From assembly GCF_000008365.1 (NCBI RefSeq), contig NC_006908.1:120001-152000 (forward strand): DNA of 32,000 nt, given 5' to 3'. Origin of the DNA: Mycoplasma mobile 163K (GTDB lineage Bacteria; Bacillota_I; Bacilli_A; Mycoplasmatales; Metamycoplasmataceae). Below, piece by piece: positions 929-24,800 of this stretch (position 1 is the first letter of the stretch; every line of letters begins with the position of its first letter). The translations under genes were made by a program, and so were the position numbers. The notes under the pieces are model-generated. The model made no database searches and was not told the DNA's origin. It was given only the letters and a program-made list of their open reading frames with translations.

Positions 929-3133
929 ATGAATAAAAATACTTCTTTTAAAATAAAAGCAAAAATTAAAAATGTTATTTGGAAAAATCCAAATAATTTA
1001 GGCATAAAAATTGTTAATTTAGCAATTCTTGAAGACGAATTTAATTATTTGAAAGAAAAAGAATTCCCAGCTAAAGATTATAAATCTATGTTAGTTGAAG
1101 AATTAGAATATGAATTAGATGTAAGTTTTAGTGATGATTCTAAAAAAACACTTTATATTAACAATGCATCAATAACGTTTCCAAATACAGCAAAAAAATT
1201 GATAAATTTTTTTTCATCTTCTCTATTTCCAGGTATCGGAAAAACCTCAGCAACTTTAATTGTTGAAAAATTAAAAATTGATTCTATAGAAAAAATAGTG
1301 GATCATATTGAAGACATTTCAATTTTAATTGGGCAATCAAAAGCTAAAGTAATTCAAGAAGTAATTGAAAATAATTATAATAATTATGAAGCTCATCAAT
1401 TTTTTATAATTAATTCTTTACCCATTTCTTTGTTAGAAAAATTTAGCTTTTATTATGGCAAGAAAAATCTATTAAATAAATTAAAAGAAAATTTATATAA
1501 GATTGTTTATTTTGATCCCTCTGTAAAATTAGAACTTTTAACAAAAATTCACAAACTTTTAAATTTGAAAATTGATGAATTAGAATTTTTAAAAGCTAGT
1601 ATTTACAAAATTCTTTTCCTTTATACCAATAATTCAAATAACACCTACATGAGTTTAGATTTTTTGTTCAAATCTTTTTCTGAAAAATTTAGTTATATTA
1701 GCCTAGATAAAGTTAAATTTTCTGATTTAATAACTTTTTTAAAAAATGAAAAGCATCTAGATTTTTTTAAAATAAAAAATAAAATTTTTGTTATTAGTGA
1801 ATTTTTCAAAGATCACGAAAAATTTATTTTTGAATACATTAGTAGTCTTGAAAAAAAAATTAGTCAGCACACTTTTAATTTAGAAAAAATTATCAATTCT
1901 AAAACTTTAGATTCAATTCAAAAAGAAGCAATAATTTATTCTTTAAATAACTCTTTTAATATTATTAGTGGAATTCCAGGTAGTGGTAAAAGCGCAATTA
2001 TTAAAAGAATTTATAAAAAAGCAAAGGAAATTTATAAAGATGAAGAAATTCATGTTTTAACTCCAACAGGTAAGGCAACAATAATTTTAAAACAAAATAA
2101 TCAAGAAGCAAAAACCATTCACAGTTTTTTAAAATGAAACAAAGATAATAATCAATTTGATTTTAAAACTATAAATTATGATCATGTTAAAGTAATTATT
2201 ATTGATGAATTTAGTATGGTAGATACATATGTTTTTAGCACTTTATTAAAAGTAGTTCCTAATTTAGAAAAATTAATACTTGTAGGTGATTACAATCAGC
2301 TACCTTCTATTAAAGGTGGTCAAATTTTAAAAGATTTAATTGAATCTAATCTTTTTAAAGTCTTTTTTTTAAAAACCAATTATCGTCAAAAAGATAAATT
2401 TGATATTATGAAAAATGCTTTAATGGTTAATGATGATTTGATTCCTACATTTAATTCAGAAAATACTTTATTTCTAGAAGCTTCTTCAGAAAATTATTTT
2501 AATAAATTAACAACTTATCTTGATCTTTTTATTGAAAAACATCATAATTACACTTTTTTTGAAACTATGAATTTAATAAATATATTAAGCGTTAAATATG
2601 AAGGATATGGAGGCATTAACGAAATTAATCAAAGTCTTCAGAATTATTTTCAAAGACATTATTTTAAAGATAATCAACCTTTTTATAAAACTCCAAATTT
2701 AAAATTATTCATAAATGATAAGGTGATTCAAATTGAAAATGATCCTGAAAACGATGTCTATAATGGTGAACTTGGTTTTATTAATAATGTTAAATTGAAA
2801 GAAAATAAAGAAATTGATTTAATTAGTGTTGATTTTGGAAATAAAATAATAACTTACAATTTGAATAATTTTTTGCAATCAGTAAAATTAGCTTATGCAA
2901 TAAGTGTTCATAAATTTCAAGGCTCTGCTTCAGAAATTTTAATTTTTTTAATATTTAAAAATCAGAAAAAATTATTATCTAAAAAACTTATTTATACAGC
3001 TTTTAGTAGAGCAAAATCTTTTTTAATAGTAATTGGTGAACACGAAGCTTTTAGTATAAGTGTTGCAAAAGAAAATAATTTAGATAGAAAAACCTATTTA
3101 AGATATTTACTAAATTTCAATAAAATGAAATAA
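929..3133 (+). CDS. recD2: RecD2-type SF1 DNA helicase (RecD/TraA family), 734 aa
   Basis: Track ORFs 929..2137 and 2216..3133 are both in frame 2 and join through a TGA at 2135-2137, with no TAA/TAG between them. There is an HhH-like GIGKTSATLIVEKL near the N-terminus. Helicase motifs present are GIPGSGKS (Walker A, ~1972-1995), IIIDEFSMV, LILVGDYNQLPSI, TNYRQ, AISVHKFQGSASEILIF and YTAFSRAKSFLIVIG. Confidence 0.9.
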
Positions 3134-3273
3134 GTTAATTTTAGAACTGTTAACAATATCTACTCTTATAATTCTATAGCATCAAATTCTAAATATTTTT
3201 AGCTTTAAGTTCTTTTTGAATTGTAGGAAGTGATTTTATCAAAGCTGCATCTTTTTCAACTTTTTCAAGTCTA
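2485..3273. repeat. Left copy of a long direct repeat (recD2 3' end, intergenic spacer and 3' end of the downstream minus-strand gene)
   Basis: Aligns base for base with 5710..6499. The offset is 3225 nt and becomes 3226 after an A5 (2535-2539) versus A6 (5760-5765) difference. Only a handful of substitutions were seen by eye. Confidence 0.95.
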
Positions 3274-3385
3274 GATGTGACTCTATCTGATTTTGAATTC
3301 ATGTTTTTAGAAAGACTTTCAATTAACTCTAAAATTTTAATTTGATTTTTTAACTTCTTTTTTAAATATCTATATTTTTTACTTT
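3189..3385 (-). pseudogene. Decayed remnant of the coiled-coil protein gene (paralog of 6415..6783)
   Basis: The minus-strand reading ends ...SRLEKVEKDAALIKSLPTIQKELKAKNI* with its stop at 3189-3191, against ...NRLENVEKDVVLIKSLPTIQKELKARNI* in the intact copy. Only 37 codons follow the first ATG (3302-3300). An upstream in-frame TAA lies at ~3385, and the N-terminal half and most heptad units are missing. Confidence 0.65.
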
Positions 3386-3814
3386 AGATTTTAATTTAAG
3401 TAAAAAACCCTTATGTATTTAGATAAAACATAAAATTATTACTTTCTTTTTTGTAAGTAGGAATTATTTATGTAAGTATAGAGCATACTTAATTTATTTC
3501 TAAAAGATGTTTTTGTAATTTTAAAGCTAAATTAAAATTCATTTCAGTTTTTTAAAACTTAAAATAATTTCTAAATAACAAATAAAAATTATTTTCCTTA
3601 AATTCTTTAAGAATAGTATTTCTTTGTTCGTTTTATATATTTTTTAGTAGAGTTATTTGCATCTAATAGTTAGATTAATGAAAATTTTTTAAAATCGCTA
3701 CTCTATTACAAGATATAAATTTTAGAGTTTAGTTTTTATTTACCATTTTTAGATCTAAAAGTTTTTAAATTAACAAAAAAGTTTTTATTTAAAGAAATAA
3801 TATAAACTTTATTT

Positions 3815-4604
3815 ATGGACAAAGGTTTAGATTTATTGATAGATTCATTAAAAAATTTGAAAAAATTTGCATCTTATGGTGCAAAAGGTAAGGATTTTGA
3901 AGATAAGGTTAAATCAGAGTTAGAAAAAATGCATTTTAAACAGACATCATTGAAAATTACTGATCCATTAAATCTTTTTCAGGAATTTCTCGAAGAACAC
4001 AAAAAATCAGTTTTTGAAGAAGTAGTAAAAAAACTAAAAGACCAAGTTTTAGATAAAAAAAATTTTGAATCAATTTCAAATTTATTTAGAAAATTTTTAG
4101 GTGAAAGTAATAAATATTTGTATGTGTATCAACCATTTGGTTCGCAAGATTTTCCAGATTTTTTGGTTTTTACAGAAAATTGAATCATTCCTTTAGAAGT
4201 AAAGTACTCCGAAAAAACGAATGGACAACCAAAATGAAATTCCAATATTCCAAAATCAAATTCAATTTATTTGCAAATTCTAAAAATTTTACTTATTTTT
4301 TAGGTGGAGATTATATTTCTCCAGAAATAAGAATAGAATTCATAGATTATTTTGAAAATTTTAATGAATCAAAAAAATACAAGACCAATTAGTTAAAATA
4401 AAAGATCTTGCTGAGGAAAATAAAAAGTTGAAAAATCCTTTTGGAATCTATCCAAAAATAAGAATTGATTATTTGCAAAGAGATGATTTCAAAATTGGTG
4501 AGAATAAATATCCCCGCAATACAACTTTATTCGATTTTTCTAAAAAGAATAATTGAGAAAATTTAGTTATTAAATATTTATGAGAATTAAAAAATGAAAA
4601 ATAA
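3815..4604 (+). pseudogene. Type II restriction endonuclease (PD-(D/E)xK-like), disrupted by two -1 frameshifts
   Basis: Frame 2 (3815-4303) contains ...YVYQPFGSQDFPDFLVFTENWIIPLEVKYSEK, a PD-x12-E-V-K arrangement, and hits TAG at 4301. The sensible continuation is in frame 1, with TAG at 4390. It then moves to frame 3 and ends at TAA 4602-4604, overlapping the methyltransferase start by 11 nt. The span is 790 nt, so adding 2 nt gives 263 codons plus stop. Confidence 0.6.
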
Positions 4605-5523
4605 TAAGCTAGATCAATTTTATACAAACCCAAAAATAGTAGATTCTTTACTAAAAATTGTTTTTGATCTTTTTTACTCTTTAAGAAATGATCAAAGTCA
4701 GTACACTTTTATTGAACCGTCAGCAGGTTCGGGCAATTTTATTGATGGACTTTATAAATTAGGAGTTGATATTAAAAAAAATGTAAGGGCTTTTGATATT
4801 GACCCAAAAAATAATAGTATTATTGAAAAAAAGGACTTTTTTGATGTAAATTTCAATGAAATGAATTTAAATAAGAAAAAAACTGTCACCATTGGGAATC
4901 CTCCATTTGGAAAAAAAGGAGATTTAGCTCTTAAATTTTTAAATAAAAGTTTAGAGCATAGCGGAATTGTTGCATTTATACTTCCAAAAATTTTCAATAG
5001 ATATTTAACACAATCAAAAGTAAAAAATGATTCCAAACTTATTTTTCAACAAAATATAGATTCCAATTCTTTTTTGGTAAATGATAGAGAATACAATGTA
5101 AATTGTTGTTTTCAAATTTGAATTAGCCCAGAAGTAAAAGTTTCCATATCTAATCTTAGATTGGAAAAGCAAATAAAAGCATTAACTTCTGATGTTGAAT
5201 TATTTGTCCACAACAATACGAAAGAAACATTAAAATATTTCGATAAAAAAAAATATAATTGAGATTTTGCTGTTCATAGACAAGGTTATTATGATTACAA
5301 TAAAAAAATTATTAACCCAAAAAAATTAATTCAGAATAGACAATATCTATTCATAAAATGCAAAAATGAAGAAATAAAACAATATGTTGAAAAAATTGAT
5401 TTTAGTAAACTTTCAAAGGAAAATTCAACAACAATTTTTGGTTTTTCAAATTCAGATTTTTACAAAGAACTTTATGAATTAATTTTGCACGAATTTTCTG
5501 AAAAGGAATTTAATTTTGATTAA
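4594..5523 (+). CDS. N6-adenine DNA methyltransferase, gamma class (motif I before motif IV), 309 aa
   Basis: The frame-1 ORF 4594..5121 continues through TGA codons at 5119 and 5260 to TAA at 5521-5523. It has N-terminal DQFYTNP, the AdoMet motif I FIEPSAGSGNF (~4711-4743) and the catalytic motif IV IGNPPFG (~4891-4911). Confidence 0.9.
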
Positions 5524-5709
5524 AGTCTATTTTAATTTTAAAATAAAAATAGAAACTTAATAAAAAGTTTTAAATATTTGAAAATAGCAAATTTCTTTTG
5601 CTGATTTAATAATTTAATATAGTATATATTTCAAAACAAGATTGAAAAATAATTTTAAAAATTAGCAAAATATTTATATTTAATTAATTTTTTTTCCTTT
5701 ATAAGGATA

Positions 5710-6359
5710 TTCAGAAAATTATTTTAATAAATTAACAACTTATCTTGATCTTTTTATTGAAAAAACATCATAATTACACTTTTTTTGAAACTATGAATTT
5801 AATAAATATATTAAGCATTAAATATGAAGGATATGGAGGCATTAATGAAATAAATCAAAGTCTTCAGAATTATTTTCAAAGACATTATTTTAAAGATAAT
5901 CAACCTTTTTATAAAACTCCAAATTTAAAATTATTCATAAATGATAAGGTGATTCAAATTGAAAATGATCCTGAAAACGATGTCTATAATGGTGAACTTG
6001 GTTTTATTAATAATGTTAAATTGAAAGAAAATAAAGAAATTGATTTAATTAGTGTTGATTTTGGAAATAAAATAATAACTTACAATTTGAATAATTTTTT
6101 GCAATCAGTAAAATTAGCTTATGCAATAAGTGTTCATAAATTTCAAGGCTCTGCTTCAGAAATTTTAATTTTTTTAATATTTAAAAATCAGAAAAAATTA
6201 TTATCTAAAAAACTTATTTATACAGCTTTTAGTAGAGCAAAATCTTTTTTAATAGTAATTGGTGAACACGAAGCTTTTAGTATAAGTGTTGCAAAAGAAA
6301 ATAATTTAGATAGAAAAACCTATTTAAGATATTTACTAAATTTCAATAAAATGAAATAA
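5710..6359 (+). pseudogene. Truncated duplicate of the recD2 3' end (last ~204 codons)
   Basis: Nearly identical to 2485..3133, with the same stop position (6357-6359 versus 3131-3133). It has no helicase N-terminal half, no ATP-binding motifs and no convincing start or RBS. The one-base A-run difference at 5760-5765 puts the first ~50 nt out of frame. Confidence 0.9.
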
Positions 6360-6499
6360 GTTAATTTTAGAACTGTTAACAATATCTACTCTTATAATTC
6401 TATAGCATCAAATTCTAAATATTTCTAGCTTTAAGCTCTTTTTGAATTGTAGGAAGTGATTTTATCAAAACTACATCTTTTTCAACATTCTCAAGTCTA
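5710..6499. repeat. Right copy of the long direct repeat
   Basis: See 2485..3273. It includes a copy of the last ~650 nt of recD2, the 55-nt spacer and the 3' end of the coiled-coil gene. Confidence 0.95.
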
Positions 6500-6783
6500 T
6501 TTTCAACTTTTTCAAGTCTATTTTCAACATTCTCAAGTCTATTTTCAATTTTATCTAATCTTGTGTTTATACTTTTTATACCACTTGAAAGATTTTCAAT
6601 TTTAGTATCAAAACTTTTAGAAAGATTTTCAATTGCATTTAAAATATTTTGATTTGATTTTGTAGCTTCTTTTTTGATAAAAACTCCTTCAATAATATAT
6701 TTATAAGAATTACCATCATTAAAAATTTCTTCTAATTTTTGAATTTCTGATTTTCTTATTATTTCTAATATTTTCTTTTTCAA
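6415..6783 (-). CDS. Small coiled-coil protein with heptad repeats (122 aa); possibly related to the mycoplasma DUF16-type coiled-coil family
   Basis: TTG start at 6783-6781, preceded by a strong SD (AAAGGAGAAGTA on the coding strand). The C-terminal half reads ...RLDKIENRLENVENRLEKVENRLENVEKD..., a perfect heptad periodicity. The family assignment is from memory of the motif style only. Confidence 0.7.
   Translation of the reverse strand: MKKKILEIIRKSEIQKLEEIFNDGNSYKYIIEGVFIKKEATKSNQNILNAIENLSKSFDTKIENLSSGIKSINTRLDKIENRLENVENRLEKVENRLENVEKDVVLIKSLPTIQKELKARNI
6483..6545. repeat. Three tandem 21-nt units inside the coiled-coil CDS
   Basis: CAACATTCTCAAGTCTATTTT (6483-6503), CAACTTTTTCAAGTCTATTTT (6504-6524) and CAACATTCTCAAGTCTATTTT (6525-6545). 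Degenerate units flank the array. The units encode ENRLENV/ENRLEKV on the minus strand. Confidence 0.95.
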
Positions 6784-8076
6784 TACTTCTCCTTTAATTT
6801 TATCTTTTTTGTATAAACTTTTTAAAAAGTTTCAATTTTTTAAAGTTTTAAAACTTTTTTCTTGCAAATTTTAATTCAAGTAAAAAACACTTAAGCAATT
6901 AGGAAAACTTACAATTATTCCTTTTTGTTATAGAAATTATTTTTATAAAATATAGAAAAGTTTTAATCTTTTAAGGCATTTAAAAAAATATAATAAAAAA
7001 CCATACTTGAAAAAATTAAGACTTTATATTATATTTTGTAATCAATTGATTGATTTTAGATATTTATTTTCCCTTCAATTACAAATAACTTAAAATAAAT
7101 TTTCTTAATGAAAATAATCATTAAAAAAGAAATTTTCAATTTAAAATCTTTTACACTTAGTAATTACAAATCTTTACTTTTTAATTCTTTTATTTTTCTT
7201 TATCAATTGAAAATAAAAATTTTAATTAATTTTTATTCAGGATTAAGTACTAACTACTTTTGCATTTCTTTCAATTTTAATTACAACATGTGAAATAGTT
7301 AAAATTGCAAATCATAATAACAATAGGCACTAGAATATTGAATCAACTAAACTAAATTTTAAAGAAATTCATATTACTAAAGAAATTAGTTTTTCATATA
7401 TAAAATATAAAACAAACTAATCATAGTAATTTTTTATCTTACAAATTAAATAATCAAAATTTAAATGAATTTGTAATGTTCATAGAATCTTTTAATGCAA
7501 TTACTTTTGCTTTTTTTAAAAAATCTAGTAATTTTCTAGCAAGTTTTACTTTAAATTCTGGTGTTTTAGGCACAATAATAGTTTTGATTTAACTATTAAA
7601 GATACAAAAGCATTTTAAATTTAAATGTCCTATAAGTTTATAAACGTACTTTAAATAAAAAAATTTTTAGAATTCTGATTCTTTCAAACTTTATTCTATA
7701 AAACTAAAGATTTAAAATTAAGAAAAAGCAAGACAATTCAAGAAACAAGTTCACATTTTTATGACTAATCTAAGAAAATAAAATATGAAATTAGTAATTA
7801 AAAAAAAGTACTAGTTATAGAATATTTCAAGAGATTAAATTTAATTTCATGAAGGCAATTTTCTATAAATGATATTTCATATTTGTAGTATCATTATTTT
7901 AAAACTTTCAATATTTATTAAAAAGCAAAATAACTTGTTTTTTAATAAATTTACCAAGCTCCTCTCTTTAAAAGAAAATAAATTCTAAAAAATAATTAAG
8001 CCTAATTTTTTGTTAAATTTACTTTATTATGGCATAGTTAAATATTATGTTAAAAAATATTATGAAAGTGAGAAAT

Positions 8077-9525
8077 ATGAAAATTAAAAATAAATTAATT
8101 GTAGGATTAGGAACAATTGCTACTATTGCAATTCCTACAATTACAGTTGTAGCTTGTGGAACAGTTACAAATCCAAATGTATCAACAGAAATTGCATCAA
8201 TTGCAGGACTAAGAGGACTAGCAGGAATATCAGATTCAACTAATTTAACTCCAAGTCAAACTAGTGATGTAAGATTATATATTGAAAAAGAAATTAGTTC
8301 AATTGGAGAATTAGAATTAACTGGAAATTTTAAAAATACTTTACCTTCACAAATTACAAATCAAAATTTAAATCAATTTGTTAAAACACCAGAGCAATCA
8401 AATGGAGTAGCTTTTAAGTTATTTTTAGATGAGACATATGGAAGAAATGATGAAGATGGAGAAATAACTGTATTTATTAGCGGAACTGCTCTAGGTGTAA
8501 CACATTCAAATCACTTTGATTTTCATTTTTTAATTGACGATTTTAAAGAAGAGCAAAAAGCTGATACTATTAAAGATGCTATTAAAAAATTACCACCATT
8601 AGAATTAATTGGAAATTTTAAAAATACTTTACCTTCACAAATTACAAATCAAAATTTAAATCAATTTGTTAAAACACCACCTACTTCTAATGGGGTTACT
8701 TTTTCTTTAAGTTTAATTAACAGTAATTGAGAATGATTAGAATTTTTACCGGAAGATATTAGAGATAATTTTTCTGCAAATGATGCTGAAGGAGAATTGC
8801 TTGTTGCTATTTCAGGAACATATCAAGGTTATACTTTAAGACCTATAATAGTTCCTGATTCTTCAGTAAATTTTCAAGACATTTTTTTAAGAGATTCTAC
8901 AGTACAACCCATTAAAGGATTTAAAATTAGTGATAATAGTTCAAAAATTTTAAGTGCTTTAAATAAAATAACTACTTTAAATAAAACAGGTGATTTTACT
9001 AGTACTTTAGTTACAGAAATTACAAATGAAAATTTAAATCAATTTGTTATAACACCAGAACCTATTGATGGAGTAGAATTTACTTTGAATTTAATTAGAA
9101 GAGATGAAGAATTTGGTGAGCTACATATTTACATAACAGGTACTTACCAAGGAGATAAACATGTTACTTCTTTTTGAAAAGGAAGATTTAATCCAAAAAT
9201 TATTAAAGTATCAGGATTTCAAATTGATGAAACAATTATTACAATTAAAGAAGCACTAAGAAAAATTCCTAGATTTTTAACACTACTTAGTGATTTGAAT
9301 TTGGTTATTGCTTCAACTGTTACAAATCAAAATTTAAATCAATTTGTTAAAACACCAGAACCTATCAATGGAGTAAGCTTTACTTTAAGAATCTATGAAA
9401 GAGATGATGATTCTTTGGAAATAGTTGTTATTGGAACATATCAAGACTTGAGATGATTTAACACAAATATTCATTCTTCTGGTGGAAATCCAATTAGAGA
9501 ATTAGAATTTAAAGATATAGATTAA
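8077..9525 (+). CDS. Modular surface lipoprotein, 482 aa, four tandem ~96-126 aa modules
   Basis: Track ORFs 8047..8730 and 8797..9177 plus the downstream sequence are all in frame 1. They join through TGA codons to TAA at 9523-9525. The signal peptide MKIKNKLIVGLGTIATIAIPTITVVAC has a lipobox Cys. Alternative in-frame ATGs lie at 8047 and 8062. The motif (I/V)TNQNLNQFVKTP...NGV.F.L...GE..V.I.GTYQG recurs four times. Confidence 0.85.
8311..8391 (+). repeat. 81-nt internal direct repeat, copy 1
   Basis: TTAGAATTAACTGGAAATTTTAAAAATACTTTACCTTCACAAATTACAAATCAAAATTTAAATCAATTTGTTAAAACACCA. It is identical to 8599..8679 except for one base (C/T at repeat position 11). Confidence 0.95.
8599..8679 (+). 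repeat. 81-nt internal direct repeat, copy 2 (288 nt = 96 codons downstream of copy 1)
   Basis: See 8311..8391. Confidence 0.95.
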
Positions 9526-15401: not shown

Positions 15402-18400
15402 ATGGGTTTTAGTTTAAAAAAGAGTCTTATTATTGGACCAATTATTGCAGTAGGAGCTATTGCAATAGGAGTACCAGTAATTGTAGCAACAACTTTTAGA
15501 GCAAATTCAGAAGAATCAAGCACAATTTCAGTTGAAGAAGTAAAAAACGATAGGTTAATAAGCAATATAAATGCCTCATATGTAGGAAACGCTAGTGCTG
15601 TTACAACATCTAATTTAGTAATTAATAATTTTACTTTGAATAAATCAAAAAATCCAAGAATAAAATATGAAATAACAAAAATAGAATCTTCTTCATTAAA
15701 AAATTCTGCAATTGTTACATTTCAAGGATTTGTGGTAAATGATCCAAACTTTATTCCTGTTGTTTTTGTTTCAGAAGTAGGTGGCTTTTTATTTAGTGCT
15801 GAACAATTAAAAAATGATCTTAATTCTAGAATGATTGCTCCATCATTAAATTCTGCTGCTTTAAATAAAAAACCTTCAAAAATTACTTTAGAAGATTTGG
15901 TAAATCCAAATTTAAATCTTTTAAGTGCTTCGAATTTATTTAATTCTTTAACTGTTACTTTTTCTTATGAATTAGGAGAATTTAATGATAATTTAAGTCC
16001 TAATTATGGAAGAGACATTATTGTTAATTTTATTGTTAGTGGAATTAACAATACTTCATCTCAAGGTTCTTATAAAACAAAAATAGAAACAGGAATTGAA
16101 AACTTTATTAGCTCAGAAATTGTAAATAACAACATAACAGGAACAATTAATGGTTTAGATAATCAAGCGAGCAAGGCTATTTTGGTTTCCAAAAATAAAG
16201 CAAGCAATAGAGCACTTGAAATTTTATCCACTGATTACAATATTGAGAATTCATATATTTTATCTGTCAATTTAAATGGAAAAAATCATGACATTAAAGT
16301 GAATCAAAAAATTGGATCTGTAAAATCTGCAAATGACATAAATGGAGAATTATTTTTAGAAATAATAGTTAATTTAGATCTTTCTTCACTAGTAATTAAT
16401 GAAACTCCAGGACCTAGTAATTTTATTTTTAATTTTTCTCAATTAGAACAAGGATTTTTAAGTAACGACAAAATTGTTGATTCAACTAATGAAGCAATGA
16501 GTACTTTGAATATTTCAAACATAATAACTTCTAATGATATTTTGCTTCAAAATTCAAAAGATGTTTTATCTACAAATTGAAATGTAAATAGTTTTAGAAT
16601 CGATTCATCAAAAAATAGTTTTGTACAAAACTCAACTATTTTAGGTGCTAATGAATCTGTGAGATATAACTTAGTAATAAGTAAAGTAGATCCTATTTTA
16701 GGAACAAACTCTGCTAATTTAACTATTAGTGCAATTCCTTTAATTTCAACAACAACTAATAAAACAATTATTTTAGGAACAATTATTTTTGCTAGTCCGA
16801 TAGATTCTATTATAGTCGCCCAAGATACAATTGCTCTTGATGATTTGATTATTCAATCTATAATCCCTACTTTTCAAAACTCAACAAACTTAATTAGTTT
16901 AAATAGTCTACCTTCAGAATTATCAAATAATTTAAACACTACAAATTTTTCAAACCATTTTAATTTTCAAATTCCTTCAAATGCTCCAATAGGTACAACA
17001 TATAAAATTCTAAAAATAAATCAAACTAATGATTTTTTTGGCCAAATGGATTTAGAAGTGGAAATTTCTATTCCAAGATCTTTTTTAAGTAAAACATATG
17101 TTGTAAAAGTTTCAGGTTTTAATACAACACATAGAAAAACCTTAACTGCGTTTAATGAAATTAGAAATAATCCAGCAAACGCTAATTTATTTATTCCGAC
17201 TTTTACAAGTATAAGTTCTCAAAATAACACAAATGTTGATCAAGTTATACCTGCAAATTTAAATTTAAATAAAACTCTTCTAGACCAGTTTGCATTAATT
17301 GACCCAAGTGTTAGCCTTGAATTTGAAATTATAAGTAGAAATTCTCAGGAAGGAATAATCAGTGGAAATATTATATTAAGTGCATCTAATTTAAGAAATC
17401 CAAATACCCCAACTGAATTAAGAGGAGTGGTTAAATATAGTTTTTCTCTTGGAGGATTTTTATCAACAAATGCAATTAATATTGAGTTATTAGAAAATGC
17501 ATTTAATAATTTGCCAACAATTACTCTTAATAATAATGCTTTAAATTTAGTTAAGCTACCTGGTCTTATTACATCTAATGATTTTAATCCTATAACTTTA
17601 TCAAATAATGTTAGAGCAAGATATTTAACAGGGTTAAATAGTATTACAAATATTAATATAATTACAGGTTCATTAGATTTACAAGTAGAATTATCTGTTT
17701 CGAATGACTCAACTAATCCTAATTCTACTTCTAGATCTGTTTTAGTTCGTCCTATAACAGTAAGAAATTTACCTACTTTACAAAATTACATGAATCATTT
17801 GGCAACAATTGTAAAACCTGATTTGCTATTAAATAGTCAAAACAATACTTTATTATTAGCATCACAAATATCTGAAAATAATATATTTCCAGTAAATCCT
17901 GTTTTTCCTGGGACTACAAATTTAGTATTTAATTTAAACACAAATTTGATTAACTTTATAGAAAATGTTTTTACAAATATTCAATTTAAAATAAATAAAT
18001 TCACGCCAAATGATATTAATGGTTCAGCTGAAGTAGAAATAGAATTATTTGTAACAAGTCAAAATGTCCCAAGTTTAAACATGTCTGTAATTTCTTCTGT
18101 TTATACTATTAATTTGCTTCCTAATACTTTTAGTTCAAATAGAACTGTAATAAACACTGAAATGCAAACTTTGGCAAACATTATCATCAGTAGAAATCCA
18201 AATGATTTTATCTTATTTAATGGTCCAAAAATATCCACAAATCCTTCGCTTGTGAAAAATGAAGATTTATCAGTTAATTTATCAAGCTTAAGTTTTGGAG
18301 AATTTCCAAATTCTCAAGATGTAAGTTTTGATGCTCAAATAGTTTCGATAAATTCAGAAAAAGGAACTTTAATTGTCAATTTAAGAGGAACAAGAGCAAA

Positions 18401-18788
18401 TGAAAACTTTATTTCTAATGTTTCACTAGAACTTACAGAATTTCAAACTGATTCAAAAAGTGTTTTAGAGGCTATAAATTCACTAGAAAATACCATAATA
18501 ACAAATCCTCAATTAGTTTTTAATGGAAGAACTTCAACAGGAGCAATTCAAACAATGGAAAACACAACTGTAAATCAATTAAATGCCCAAAGTTTTTCAT
18601 TTGATTTTGAATCGAATAATCAACTTTCTAATTCTGGAACTATAAATCCTAAAAATCTAATAAGATATTTTATTGTAAATATTAATACGACACCAACATC
18701 TGGAACTGTTAGTGTTCAAATAAGATTAGAAAAAGGCAATACTGTAGAATTTAAAAATATCACAATTCAAGGATTTAAAACTAATTAA
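15402..18788 (+). CDS. Large signal-anchored surface protein, 1128 aa, built of ~10 divergent ~100-aa modules
   Basis: Track ORFs 15402..16580 and 16659..18788 are both in frame 3 and join through a TGA at 16578. A strong SD (AAAGGAGAAAT) precedes the ATG. The N-terminus MGFSLKKSLIIGPIIAVGAIAIGVPVIVATTF is hydrophobic with no lipobox Cys. Module-end motifs recur: VTFQGF, EVGGFL, LEQGFL, KVSGFN, SLGGFL and ITIQGFKTN*. No Cys was seen. Confidence 0.85.
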
Positions 18789-18877: not shown

Positions 18878-21800
18878 ATGACAAACAAAAAAACAAAATT
18901 AATTTCTGGAATAACAGCAACAGTTGTAGTTGCTTCAGCAGTTGGAATCGGAGTAGGAACATCTTTTGCAATAAATAGTGAAAGGGAAGTCGATCAGTTA
19001 AGAGCAATAAGTAATGCAAAAATATTTCCAATTTTAAAACAAATGCCTTTTGGAGGTGTTGAAAATTCTAGCAATCCTATTAAATTTCTAGAAGCTTTTA
19101 ATGCAAAAAGATTAGATACTAATCTAAGTCCAAATGCTTTACCTATTTGAAATAATTCAAATTTTGTTTCTTTTGATATTGTAGAAATGGCAAAAATTTC
19201 AGGAATTTCAGAAACTGTTCTTGATAATTTTTCTTTTAAGGTTGAAAAAGCTATTATTTCTAATGCAAATCCTAATAATCTAAATTTAACTATTATTGTA
19301 GTTTCTAAAAATGACAGCACTCTTTTTACAAAATATGAAATTTTGATTTCTGATTTTCTTTCAGAAGAATCATATATTCAAAAAGCAGCAGATATTATTT
19401 CTACAAAAATTAGAACTTCAAATATTACAACAACAAATTTAATTGCCCAAAGAACTTTAGCATCAAAAGTTATTGCTTCGCAACTTTCTGATTTTATTAG
19501 AGATAATATTCCTTTTAATAACTTAGTAGATGCAAATGACATCAGTTATGCTTTTGAAATTTTAAGTTCAAATGATAACTTAGGGAATATTGAAGCAAAA
19601 ATTACAATAATTCCAAGATTTAGTATTGAAAGAATAGTACTCGAATCAATTACTTTAAATGGATTTTCAACTACAACTAATCAAGAAATAATTCAAATTC
19701 AAAACAATATTCAAAATGCTTCCGAATTAAGTTTTAATTTTACTCCTCAAGCAGAAATTTTAACTATTGATAATGTAAATTCAAATAATATTCAAAATTT
19801 AGCAAAATTAACTCAAAATCCAAATCCAGGTCTTAAATATGAAATTCAAACTGATTCATTGATAATAAATAAAGAAACTAATTTGATTAATTTTGATGTT
19901 TTAATTTCTGATGCTTCAGGAAGAAATGTCGAAACCACAAAAAGATACAAAACTTCAGTAACTTTTAGACCTTTTACTATTTTTGCTTTTGATCAATTAG
20001 ATTTTGTAATTAAGGGAGAAAAATTAAATCAATTTTTATCACAAGAATTAAATACTTTAGACTTTGTACCTGCTACAAATCCTAATTCTAATTTAACCTA
20101 TACAGTTCAAAGCACAAGAATTATTAGTTTTAATTCAGTACTTTTAACAATTCGTGTTGTTCAAAATAATACAAGTAACTCACAAACATATGAAACTATT
20201 GTTAATGCAGGTTTTAGTTCAATTCAAAATAGACAAAATGCAATTTTAACTTTAATTAAAGAGCAAGAACCCGCTCCTATTTCTAAAATTGTTTTAGAAA
20301 ATACTTTGGCTTCAAATGTTCACCCTTCAAACTTTAACAATCCTGATTTTTCAAACATAATTCCATTATCTTTAAGAAATTTGCCAAATTTTTTTCCAGC
20401 AATTACTTATTCAATTTTAAACTCTGATAATGCAAATGGAACTCTTGATTTAAGAGTAAATGTTTCATTACCAGGAATGCCACAAATTGGATATACATCG
20501 AAATTTAACACTTTAAAAAGTAATGATTTTGTTCAAAATTTAATTCAATTAATTTCAAATAGAAAATTAAGTCCAATTTTAAAAACACTTACTCCTTCTA
20601 TAACAATTCCTACTATATCTTTAGAATCAATCGCAAATGATTTAGTTGCTCCAAATCAAGCTCAATTAATGTCAGGGAATAATCGTATTACTTTACCAGA
20701 AGGAGCAGTAGTAACTTTTGAAATAAATAGAAATACAGGAACACAAGGGGTTTTAAATCCAAATGATATCAATGGGACTTTAGATATTTCGATCAATTTT
20801 ACTCTTAAATTATTAGGAGATGTAGCTATTTACCAGGGTAATTATACTGTTACAATGACAGGTTTTTCAAGTCAAGAATTGAGAAATTTAGAAAATATTG
20901 CTAAATTTCAATCATTAGGGTTAAGACCTATTTATAACAATCCTTCAGTTTTAGCTTCGAACCTTTTACCTTCAAATATTAATTTAAACAATTTGAACCA
21001 ATTTCAAGTTCCTGTTTTTGATCAAGTAGCTTTTCCTGATCTAACTTTAAGAATTAAATCAATTTTAAATCCAAATAATGTTTTAGGATCTATTGATGTT
21101 ACTGTTGAGCAAAAAATTATCAAAAATGGAATCACAACAACTAGAGATAATGTAATTACAATTTTTGGATTCAGAACTGAATCTGCAGATAATGCTTTAA
21201 GTGTAATTACTAATTACATCAACACAATAAATGGAAGTGATGGACAAGTTGTAATTAAATTTAAAAATACAGTAAATCCAAACGAAACTTTAATTGCTTC
21301 TTTAACTCAAAATGATGTTGATTTCGAACCTTTTAATTTTGGTGAAAACGAACTTTTTCCTTCTCTTTCTGCTGAGGTGAGTGCAATTAGAATAAACCCC
21401 CAAGATCCAACTATAGCTCAAATTTTGATTTTAGTTAAATCCAATGTTTTAGTAAATGGACAAAATGTTCAACAAGTTTATATTCAAAACATTCCGGGTT
21501 TTGCACCTCAAGAATTTATTATTAATCGCGAAATACTAAAACAATATATTGAAAATGGTAATTTATCAAATACTTTAATTTCACCAATTTTATTACCAAC
21601 AATTGTTAAAAATTTGACTCTACCAAATACAGTTTCTTTAAGTTCATTTGAAACAACTACTTTAAGTGATCCGTCAAATCCTAATATTAATTTAAGATTA
21701 ATAGGAGTAGCACAAGGTGTTGTTAATCCAATTACAAATCCACCAGTTGCAACAAGTGTCGTTGCAACAATAAGTGCTTCATTAGGTACAGGAGATTCTG

Positions 21801-24800
21801 TAGTGACTCAAACATATATAGTTACAATTGAAGGTTTTGCAACACCAATAGGTATGGCTAATCAAACTATTGCAAATAATGAAGTTGCAAATATTGCTTC
21901 TAGAGCAGTAGCTAGTTTGAGAGACGAAGCTAAAAAAACTTTATCTGTTTCTCAACTTTTACCAAGCGATTTTAATTTAAGATACCCAGCAAATTCAACT
22001 TCAATTGTTCCAATTTCAGATTTATCAATAACACAAATAGAAGCCGATCCTAATGATTCTACAATTGCTGTTTTAACAATTCAAGTTATTATTAGAGTAA
22101 ATTCCTTTAACAACAGTTTGAATTTTGGTATTGCAACTTATACTCAAAAAATTCCAGGATTTTTAAACCAAGATAGCGGAAGAATTGCTTTAGGTTTTAG
22201 AGATTTAGCTTTAAATGCTAATGATTTAATTATTTTTAATGGAATTAAAGGTGATACAGGAGTCGATGCTGCAATTCAAAGTGGAAAAGATAATTTCACT
22301 ATTAATTCCCCTATAGGTTTTGAAAATATTATTTTTTCAATTCAGGACTTTGATTCAACAAGTACTAATGCTTCCAGAGGAGAATTAGGCTTTGTAATTA
22401 AAGGTGAGTTTAATGGGCAGATATTATTATCTTCAACAATAAATCAAAAAATTGTTGTTTCAGAATTTCTAGCAGAAAATCTAGCGATATTAAATGCAGC
22501 AACTGAATTTGGAGTTATTTTAAAACCAGAATTTAATTTAAATTCAAATAGACCTACAGCTTCACAAGCAAGTAAAGATAATTTTTCAATTAATTTTTCT
22601 CAAGCACCTGATCCAAGAGTTGAATATGAAATTACCAATTTAGTTCAAGGTGGTGAAGGGCAAGTAGATGGAAACACTGTAACCCTTACAATAATAATTA
22701 CTGTCATTGGAACAAATGTTTCTAGAACTTACAACACAGTATTTAATGGACTGGCCACTCAGAGTTTTGTAAATAATAGAACTTTAGTAAATGCTTTTAT
22801 AAGTACACCAGATTTTAATACAAGTATTTTAAGTGAAGGAGATAAAAATAAAGCAGTATTAGATTTAGTCGCAGATGATTTTACAATTAACAACACAGAC
22901 CCGAATATTAGAGTTCAAATTTCAAAAATTGAGCCTTCAGCTTTAAGCTCAACAACTGCCTCAATTACTCTTTCAATTTCTACAGGAAAAGATTTAGATG
23001 TTTTTTCTAGTGATGTTATTATTACAAAAATAGGATTTTCAAATCCAACTGTAGCCAACAACAGAAGATTGATTGAAAATTATTTATCATCTTCTGATTT
23101 ACAAAAACCATTTTATGTTGTTGAAAATAATATCCTTCCTGAATTTGTAGCAGCAAATTCTTTGAGCAAAAACAACTTTGCTATTAAAGCTATTTCAGGC
23201 GCTTTTTCTGTTATTAAACAAGAAATTACTAATTTAACTTTACAAGTAGGAGTAGATCCTGCGATTGCAACAAGTCTTACATTAACAGTAGAATACTCTT
23301 TAGGTGAAGGAGCAAATAGAGCTACTATTATTAAAGAATATGAAATTCAGGGATTTGCAACAGCTGCAAAAGCTACTAATTTTGAATTATTAAATAGATA
23401 CATGACTTCAGGGAATTTATCTAAGCCTGTTTTTCAACCTGGTTTTTTTGCTAATGAAGTAGATATTCTTACAGTTCAAACTAACATTAATAGATATTTA
23501 ACAACAAATCCTTTAGATGGAATATTCCGTCCTATTGTTTTAACTTTAGATAGTATTATTTTTGAACAAGGATCAGAAACAACTGGAATTGTGACAGTAA
23601 GAGCCTCAAATGGAATTGGAGATGATATTGCAAGTGAAACTTATGAAGTAAGAATTGAAGGATTTTTAACTGCAATACAAAACCAAAATGCAATCATTGC
23701 CTTAAATTATAGAAATAATTTAGCAAATAGAAGGGTACCTCAATTAAATGACGATATTGTTAGAGCTACAACAGCTGCATCCAATTTAACAATTAATTCT
23801 TTTAATATTGCTCAACCAAATCCCAATCCTTCTAATATAAGATTATCAATTACAAGAATCATTTTACCTGAAGGAATTTCTCCAGCAGAAGCTACAAGTG
23901 TTGAAGTTGAAGTTACTATTTTTGTAGGAAACGGTAATGCTCTTTCAAACACAATTAAATATACAACTTCTTTTGCTGGTTTTGCTAATTTAGCAAGAGA
24001 ATTAAATAATGCTGCTTTAAATGAATATATTAAATCGCCAAATAGATTAATTCCTAATTTAGTACCAACAATTGAAAAAAATCAAGTGTCAGCAAATTCT
24101 ATTGTTGTAAGTAATTTAATTTTTCCAAATAATCAAGGATCTATCGCAACAATGCAAAATAACATTACAATAAACCTAAGCATTGGATCGGTAAATGTTT
24201 CTCCCAATAATCCAAATGCAATTATTATTGTTATTAATGCTTCTGCAGGAACTCAAGTCTCAAATATTGTTAGAGGAACATATTCAATAACTATTGATGG
24301 ATTTGCAAATGAAGCAGCAGCAATAAATTTCAGAATTTTAAATAATTATGTGCAACAACTAAGGCAAGATCCAAAACCTATAAATCCAAATATTTTCTTA
24401 TTAAATTCAGCAGATTCAGCAGCTCCAATTGTTAGAGATTTATTTACAATTGATTCTCCATTTATTTTTAATGGAACAAATATTAATTTAAGAATTGAAA
24501 GAGGAATTTCTATTCCAAGTGATAATCTTGCAAACACTACTTTAGAAGTAAGAATTTCAGCTTCTATTGGAAATGAAAAAATTGAATATGGAGTAAGATT
24601 CACTCAATTTGCATCACTTGAAAGACAAAATAATATTAATGATGTAAATAATTATATTGATAATGTAAATAACAGAGCAAGAGCAATGTTAAATCCAGAT
24701 GCAACAAATTTATCAACTTTTGAAGCAAGAAATAATAATTTTACCTTGATTAATTCACCTTTAGCATCTACTGGTTTAAATCTTGTAATTACTTCTGTTT

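Follow-up and report, generated by a model that had tools for sequence, protein, structure and literature searches.

How did a restriction-modification (R-M) gene pair come to lie between two long direct copies of ordinary host sequence in a mollicute genome? The question arises in a 32-kilobase (kb) stretch of Mycoplasma mobile 163K, a mycoplasma of fish (contig NC_006908.1, positions 120,001 to 152,000; hereafter the window), where a decayed type II restriction endonuclease gene (R) and an intact DNA methyltransferase gene (M) are bracketed on either side by the 3' end of the helicase gene recD2 and by a neighbouring coiled-coil gene (cc). Judged by its anatomy, the locus probably belongs to the class of R-M insertions with long target duplication, and the history proposed for it, an insertion-linked duplication followed by decay and gene conversion, is held at about even confidence. 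Within that class the locus is unusual in the length of its duplication, in its mollicute host and in being already decayed. All positions are given in window numbering, and open reading frames (ORFs) were called under genetic code 4. The window has a GC content of 25.7%, and uninterrupted genes are seen in it only when TGA is read as Trp; ORF calling with table 11 broke up every gene, and the code-4 calls were used instead.

Two complementary copies of a host segment flank the insert

Comparison of the window with itself by megablast yields a single long repeat pair, present in two copies only. The left copy (2485-3273, 789 nucleotides, nt) covers the final 649 nt of recD2, followed by a spacer of 55 nt and by the 3' end of a coiled-coil remnant, and it aligns with the right copy (5710-6499, 790 nt) at 98.7% identity over 790 columns. 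Base-by-base comparison places differences between the copies at 10 positions, distributed very unevenly. Specifically, the recD2 part carries a 1-nt indel within an A-run (2535/5760) and three substitutions, one of which exchanges Val for Ile (2591) while two are synonymous (2620 and 2626), and a further six substitutions (3199, 3210, 3244, 3247, 3261 and 3264) all fall in the 3' end of the coiled-coil frame. Between these two groups, a core of 572 nt (2627-3198, equivalent to 5853-6424) contains zero differences; if 10 differences were scattered randomly over 789 nt, a difference-free run this long or longer would occur with a probability of P = 2.1e-5.

Past 3273 on the left and 6499 on the right, an older homology continues at 76-84% identity, interrupted by deletions in the left copy. 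It includes alignments of 3305-3363 with 6615-6675 at 84% (E 5e-11) and of 3358-3450 with 6837-6929 at 76% (E 6e-13), and it can be followed to ~3490 on the left and ~6965 on the right. The left diverged extension (3274-3490) holds the remainder of the coiled-coil remnant and a homologue of the cc upstream region, and the right one (6500-6965) holds the remainder of cc and ~100-180 nt upstream of it. In total, the duplicated unit, which takes in the terminal 216 codons of recD2, the spacer, the entire coiled-coil gene and the region upstream of that gene, is ~1006 nt long in the left copy and ~1256 nt long in the right. The left copy is ~250 nt shorter through the absence of ~86 nt, mainly four 21-nt tandem units, and of another 167 nt. 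An initial annotation of this DNA had described both the near-identical repeats and a weaker homology running to ~3480 and ~6960, and the alignments agree with it on each point. At the joint between insert and right copy (5709/5710), no microhomology or other feature is present.

The two copies retain complementary parts, with a working recD2 on the left and a working cc on the right. The left recD2 (929-3133, plus strand) encodes an intact SF1B helicase of 734 amino acids (aa) with Pfam domains AAA_19, AAA_30, SH3_13 and UvrD_C_2, and its product aligns end to end with a 731-aa relative (P0121), with conserved columns as far as K734. Its right-hand counterpart is a pseudogene fragment (5710-6359, plus strand) that lacks the 5' part and bears a 1-nt insertion at 5760, leaving a residual ORF of 204 codons (5745-6359). 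The right-hand cc (MMOB0970, 6415-6867, minus strand) encodes 150 aa, or 122 aa from the RefSeq start at 6783, and contains 21-nt (7-aa) tandem units encoding ENRLE[NK]V. This arrangement of the right copy, with the last ~204 recD2 codons next to an intact coiled-coil gene, is as the initial annotation gave it. For the left copy, its intact recD2 likewise stands, but the "37-codon stump" ascribed to the coiled-coil gene underestimates what is left: the remnant, cc', is a 62-codon open stretch (3192-3377, minus strand) whose start region is deleted and whose translation is 50-61% identical to family proteins (tblastn E 4e-14 to 3e-15), and the homologue of the cc upstream region is also kept beside it.

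Identity along the repeat is thus a mosaic, with a divergence outside the core of 2.8% at the left edge and of 8% rising to ~20%, plus deletions, at the right edge. Having no start and being frameshifted, the right recD2 fragment cannot have had its identity maintained by selection. The simplest reading of the 572-nt core is a putative tract of recent gene conversion, which we infer to have passed between the two copies inside an older duplication.

The insert holds a dead endonuclease gene and an intact methyltransferase gene

The unique insert between the copies (3491-5709, ~2.2 kb) is made up of a 324-nt leader, R, M and a 186-nt tail. Its only coding content is the R and M homologues, with no further ORF in the code-4 list. 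No integrase or transposase gene is present in the insert, the nearby ORFs being serS, recD2, R, M, cc and lipoprotein genes; no terminal inverted repeats rise above the AT-rich background at its ends; and no tRNA gene was found in the whole 32-kb window. The absence of integrase, transposase and inverted terminal repeats between the copies had been noted from the letters alone, and the ORF list and the background comparison bear it out. The accompanying description of the insert as an endonuclease/methyltransferase pair and nothing else needs one correction: R and M homologues are indeed alone there, but the endonuclease gene is not intact.

R (3815-4604, plus strand) spans the full length of intact homologues of 262-266 aa, but it does so across three frames. 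Searches by tblastn with the 266-aa M. felis protein and with the L007 and L004 proteins recover it in frames 2, 1 and 3, and alignment to the intact homologues L002 and L004 places the two frameshifts as a loss of 4 nt after 4264 and of 1 nt after 4371. These frameshifts relative to intact homologues identify R as a pseudogene, in which the nuclease motif PD...ExK can still be read as FPDF...PLEVK.

M (4594-5523, plus strand) begins 11 nt inside the end of R, an overlap also seen in homologues. Its 309-aa product contains the S-adenosylmethionine-binding motif I (EPSAGSGNF) and motif IV (GNPPFG), and it is identical (100%) to AAT27581, a 'type II DNA methylase' with a precomputed Pfam assignment to PF26055 (Mtase_EDM2); a Pfam profile scan and a PDB sequence search with the M product gave no match. 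By these motifs the pair is classified as type II, with a predicted PD-(D/E)XK nuclease and a predicted amino-methyltransferase whose gene is intact. With R a pseudogene, M is now effectively a solitary methylase.

Related cassettes occupy other loci

Homologues of M with 45-71% identity are found in many Mycoplasmopsis species and in Ureaplasma, Acholeplasma multilocale, Mesoplasma, Hepatoplasma and Helicobacter pylori, a distribution by which the cassette family clearly appears to be patchy and horizontally mobile between species. The homologous cassettes sit at loci unrelated to that of M. mobile. Specifically, the R-M pair lies between sua5 and fpg in M. felis, within an R-M island in M. 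cynos and near rpsD in U. canigenitalium, and it adjoins a DEAD helicase gene in the metagenomic sequence L002. In the cassettes of M. felis, M. cynos, M. pullorum and U. canigenitalium, R precedes M as it does in M. mobile and overlaps the start of M by 11-14 nt (11 nt in M. mobile), and the methyltransferases are 50-54% identical to that of M. mobile. The product of the upstream nuclease gene is 262-266 aa long in M. felis, M. cynos and U. canigenitalium, and a nuclease core QPFGSQxFPDF...PLExK, read in the M. felis product, is common to the M. mobile R and its homologues. In contrast to the M. mobile pseudogene, M. felis, M. cynos strain L040 and U. canigenitalium each have an intact R.

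Among these cassettes, the M. felis pair (L008, CP141032) is bracketed by a direct repeat of ~55 nt (5096-5170 and 6932-7000 of that sequence), the exact 24-mer core of which occurs only twice in 12.9 kb. On this evidence, the M. felis cassette is a possible second candidate for a mollicute insertion with target duplication.

Phages yielded only matches to distant solitary methylases, and the cassette was not found in the mollicute phages and plasmids of the collections searched. An apparent plasmid match proved to be the M. cynos chromosome, and no true mollicute plasmid carrying the cassette was found.

Shortly before the catalytic core, the homologous nuclease genes also carry an in-frame (TA)n tract, 17-31 nt long, that is translated as YIYIYIY. 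The tract is seen at L040:4513-4537, in L041/L042, at L008:5507-5537 and at the starts of L002, L004 and L007, and short-read contigs break at it. In M. cynos, R is an intact 262-aa gene where the tract has 25 nt and is split into 115 + 116 aa where it has 21 nt, and this 4-nt difference in tract length suggests phase-variable restriction. The corresponding tract in M. mobile is degenerate (4115-4129, TATTTGTATGTGTAT).

Comparison with R-M insertions with long target duplication

An R-M 'insertion with long target duplication' was reported by Nobusato et al. 2000, as cited in Furuta, Abe & Kobayashi 2010 (PMC2853133). As set out in the latter paper, the class is recognised by R and M homologues in the insert, an insert of less than 20 kb, a direct repeat of more than 30 bp, the absence of mobility genes, no more than 10 extra copies of the repeat and an empty site in a related genome. 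The confirmed cases in its Table 3 have repeats of 24-423 bp and come from proteobacteria, cyanobacteria and an actinobacterium, with 1 kb of flank examined (PMC2853133).

The M. mobile locus shares the essential anatomy of this class. R and M homologues stand alone in a short insert; the repeats are ordinary host sequence, 789/790 nt long at 98.7% identity and ~1006/1256 nt long with the diverged parts; and the locus contains no transposase, integrase or phage gene and no tRNA gene that could have served as a site-specific target. As in the class, the repeats would allow excision or amplification. Two copies of the repeat are present within the 32-kb window, and its cc portion has at least two further dispersed family members. 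Methyltransferase motifs I and IV are in place, as for a type II R-M system, whereas the two frameshifts leave no intact cognate endonuclease ORF.

In several respects the locus departs from the class. Its repeat is far longer than the 24-423 bp of the confirmed cases tabulated by Furuta et al., with 790 nt near-identical and ~1.0-1.25 kb in total, and it spans one whole gene and part of another. Moreover, R is a pseudogene and the identity of the repeat is mosaic. The host is a mollicute, and the main text and tables of Furuta et al. 2010 (PMC2853133) contain no example from this group, in agreement with the remark in the initial annotation that no mollicute case could be named. That annotation had also compared the locus to the footprint described by Kobayashi and co-workers; the comparison is partly supported, by the anatomy, the complementary copies and the differing loci of the cassette family, and it is weakened by the dead R, the mosaic repeat and the cc paralogues. 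As no empty-site genome was found among the relatives, membership in the class is probable and not proven.

The coiled-coil gene belongs to a dispersed family

The coiled-coil part of the repeat has relatives elsewhere in the M. mobile genome. At least two further intact members of the family, AAT27504 and AAT28055, lie outside the window, at distances of ~79 genes upstream and ~472 genes downstream according to accession numbering. The N-terminal 66 residues are the same across the three intact copies, bar one substitution in P0242, which suggests concerted evolution of the dispersed copies. In cc', by comparison, family-consensus residues are present at positions where the 150-aa cc departs from them (K in ...KAKNI and A in DAALIK), and simple decay of the present right-hand cc consequently does not explain cc'. 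The family is specific to M. mobile and its near relatives, the number of 21-nt units varies among its members, and two of these carry the UniProt label 'Expressed protein'.

The outer flanks and the loci of relatives

By comparison with relatives, the M. mobile locus appears to have native sequence on both of its outer sides. On the left, the serS-recD2 arrangement is kept in the closest relative, metagenomic contig L006 (69.5% nucleotide identity), which also holds the closest recD2 (53% identity at the protein level) and ends 10 nt past the recD2 stop codon. On the right, a cc homologue lies directly downstream of the orthologous gyrB-like gene in four assemblies (L010-L013, 76% nucleotide identity), which end 48-184 nt after the cc stop codon; the M. 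mobile cc lies on the same side of its gyrB-like gene, 6.3 kb off. Other recD2 relatives are distant, at 32% identity in the genome scan and 29-38% in the metagenome scan, which was run with a two-sequence profile. The contigs of relatives thus end right after recD2 (one sample) or right after cc (four assemblies), which may be a sign that the relatives, too, have repeats or strain variation at these junctions.

Proposed history and its alternatives

According to the proposed history, a mobile type II R-M cassette (PD-ExK nuclease plus N6-adenine-type methylase, PF26055) would have entered the convergent recD2/coiled-coil junction, and its entry would have caused the insert to be flanked on either side by ~1.25 kb of target DNA. 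The duplication could have arisen through a staggered break with long target duplication, as Kobayashi's group proposes, or alternatively through a Campbell-type single crossover of a circle carrying the R-M pair and one target copy. Campbell-type or suicide-plasmid integration gives the same end product, namely an intact gene, an insert, a 3' gene fragment and a direct duplication; it accommodates any duplication length and requires no element-encoded recombinase. Unlike Campbell-type vectors, the M. mobile insert has no vector backbone or replication gene, and no circular form has been observed. As the two routes would lead to the same final structure, they appear inseparable on the evidence of the sequence. 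Under selection, each gene would subsequently have stayed functional in a single copy, the left one for recD2 and the right one for cc, and the recD2 part of the repeat would later have been re-homogenised by gene conversion to give the 572-nt identical core. Given the two frameshifts in R, and a redundant cc copy from which ~250 nt and the start are missing, the event would not be recent. Additionally, the intact cc may have been overwritten by its paralogues after the duplication, adding to the contrast between cc' and cc.

Several observations weigh against this history. The identity profile of the repeat is a mosaic, unlike that of one recent duplication, and calls for a further process. 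As the cc part comes from a multi-copy family, some of the pattern could be due to exchange among paralogues, and, the family having at least three intact members, the repeat may not be unique in the genome. The insert has a GC content of 16-26%, like its flanks, and shows no compositional contrast. With R dead, the unit is no longer a functional selfish R-M system. Kilobase-scale flanking repeats are missing from the homologous cassettes, that of M. felis having only its ~55 nt: no flanking repeat was found at the cassette homologues of M. cynos, U. canigenitalium and H. pylori, and a candidate target duplication beside the M. pullorum cassette was rejected as a three-copy promoter-like element. 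Finally, no empty site was found among the relatives, of which the nearest have contigs that end at the junctions and the remainder are 29-38% identical; that the event was an insertion and not another rearrangement is accordingly what we infer.

An unlikely course of events, although the alternative that survives best, is that the R-M pair was already resident beside cc' and that a related strain without the cassette donated a homologous fragment made up of the 3' end of recD2, of cc and of the right flank. Such a fragment would have been joined by homologous recombination on the right and by an illegitimate joint at 5709/5710 on the left, that is, by homology-facilitated illegitimate recombination. 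The featureless character of that joint, with its lack of microhomology, fits such an origin, as does the far greater divergence of cc' from cc than of the recD2 parts from each other, which is expected of alleles from different lineages; the family-consensus residues kept in cc' where the 150-aa cc deviates point in the same direction. However, gene conversion or a mosaic donor would still be needed to account for a 572-nt core beside a left edge of 2.8% divergence, the cassette family is clearly mobile between species, and no donor-type sequence is available.

Also improbable, and placed below the import of a fragment, is a history in which the duplication came first, through recombination within the cc family or as a tandem segmental duplication, and the cassette was inserted between the two copies later and by accident. 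Furuta et al. (PMC2853133) distinguish such 'chance insertions between repeated sequences' as their third class. The multi-copy, concertedly evolving nature of cc, with three intact copies whose N-terminal halves are the same bar one residue, lends itself to this order of events, and the old divergence of cc' from cc suggests that the duplication could predate the rest. Yet 649 nt of the repeat come from recD2, a housekeeping gene that is present in single copy and does not belong to the cc family; the insert exactly fills the gap between the copies, with nothing else present; and only two copies exist in the 32-kb window.

The locus might, at a still lower probability, be the fossil of a hypothesised 'release and re-invade' step of R-M units. 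Here an R-M circle would have been excised via the long repeats, carrying one 1.25-kb host copy as a homology arm, and would have been re-integrated by a single crossover dependent on the host RecA. If this were true, an element without a recombinase, resident in a minimal genome, would be using fragments of host genes as its mobility module.

Independent short reads bear on the integrity of the reference itself, since the initial annotation had allowed for an assembly error. A Logan unitig/contig (L001, run SRR29904084) corresponds to 3216-5739 at 100% identity, connects the insert with the left-copy-specific single-nucleotide differences (3244-3264) on one side and with the initial 30 nt of the right copy on the other, and includes both R frameshifts. 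It thus carries both junctions, and it ends where 31-mers become common to both copies, the end point to be expected of two real copies. Misassembly is a well-known risk where near-identical repeats lie 3.2 kb apart, but with copies that differ at 10 positions and an independent contig that matches across the insert and breaks at the shared 31-mers, an artefactual duplication is hardly credible.

Other features of the window

To the left of recD2, serS ends at 842 on the minus strand in the code-4 ORF list. To the right of the locus, a predicted lipoprotein gene (8047-9525) contains a ~158-nt unit in four diverged tandem copies (8289-9412), which are 61-75% identical to the reference copy and spaced at 288-378 nt; this pattern indicates a putative internally repetitive surface protein. 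Farther downstream lie three very large consecutive plus-strand ORFs of 1128 aa (15402-18788), 3183 aa (18878-28429) and more than 1173 aa (28482-32000, running off the window end), which, from their size and order, are candidates for the M. mobile gliding genes gli123, gli349 and gli521.

Implications for the insertion class and for M. mobile

If an empty site is found, the class of R-M insertions with long target duplication would extend to Mollicutes and to kilobase-scale duplications over whole genes. The locus would then also illustrate the later fate of such an insertion, in which the nuclease is lost, the methylase is kept, the redundant copies decay and gene conversion acts between them. 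For M. mobile itself, the 790-nt repeats with their 572-nt core should remain a good substrate for deletion. As the nuclease is dead, loss of the cassette should escape post-segregational killing and be tolerated. Deletion or amplification variants may exist in M. mobile cultures, a possibility of relevance to methylome and genetic work in this organism, which serves as a model for gliding motility.

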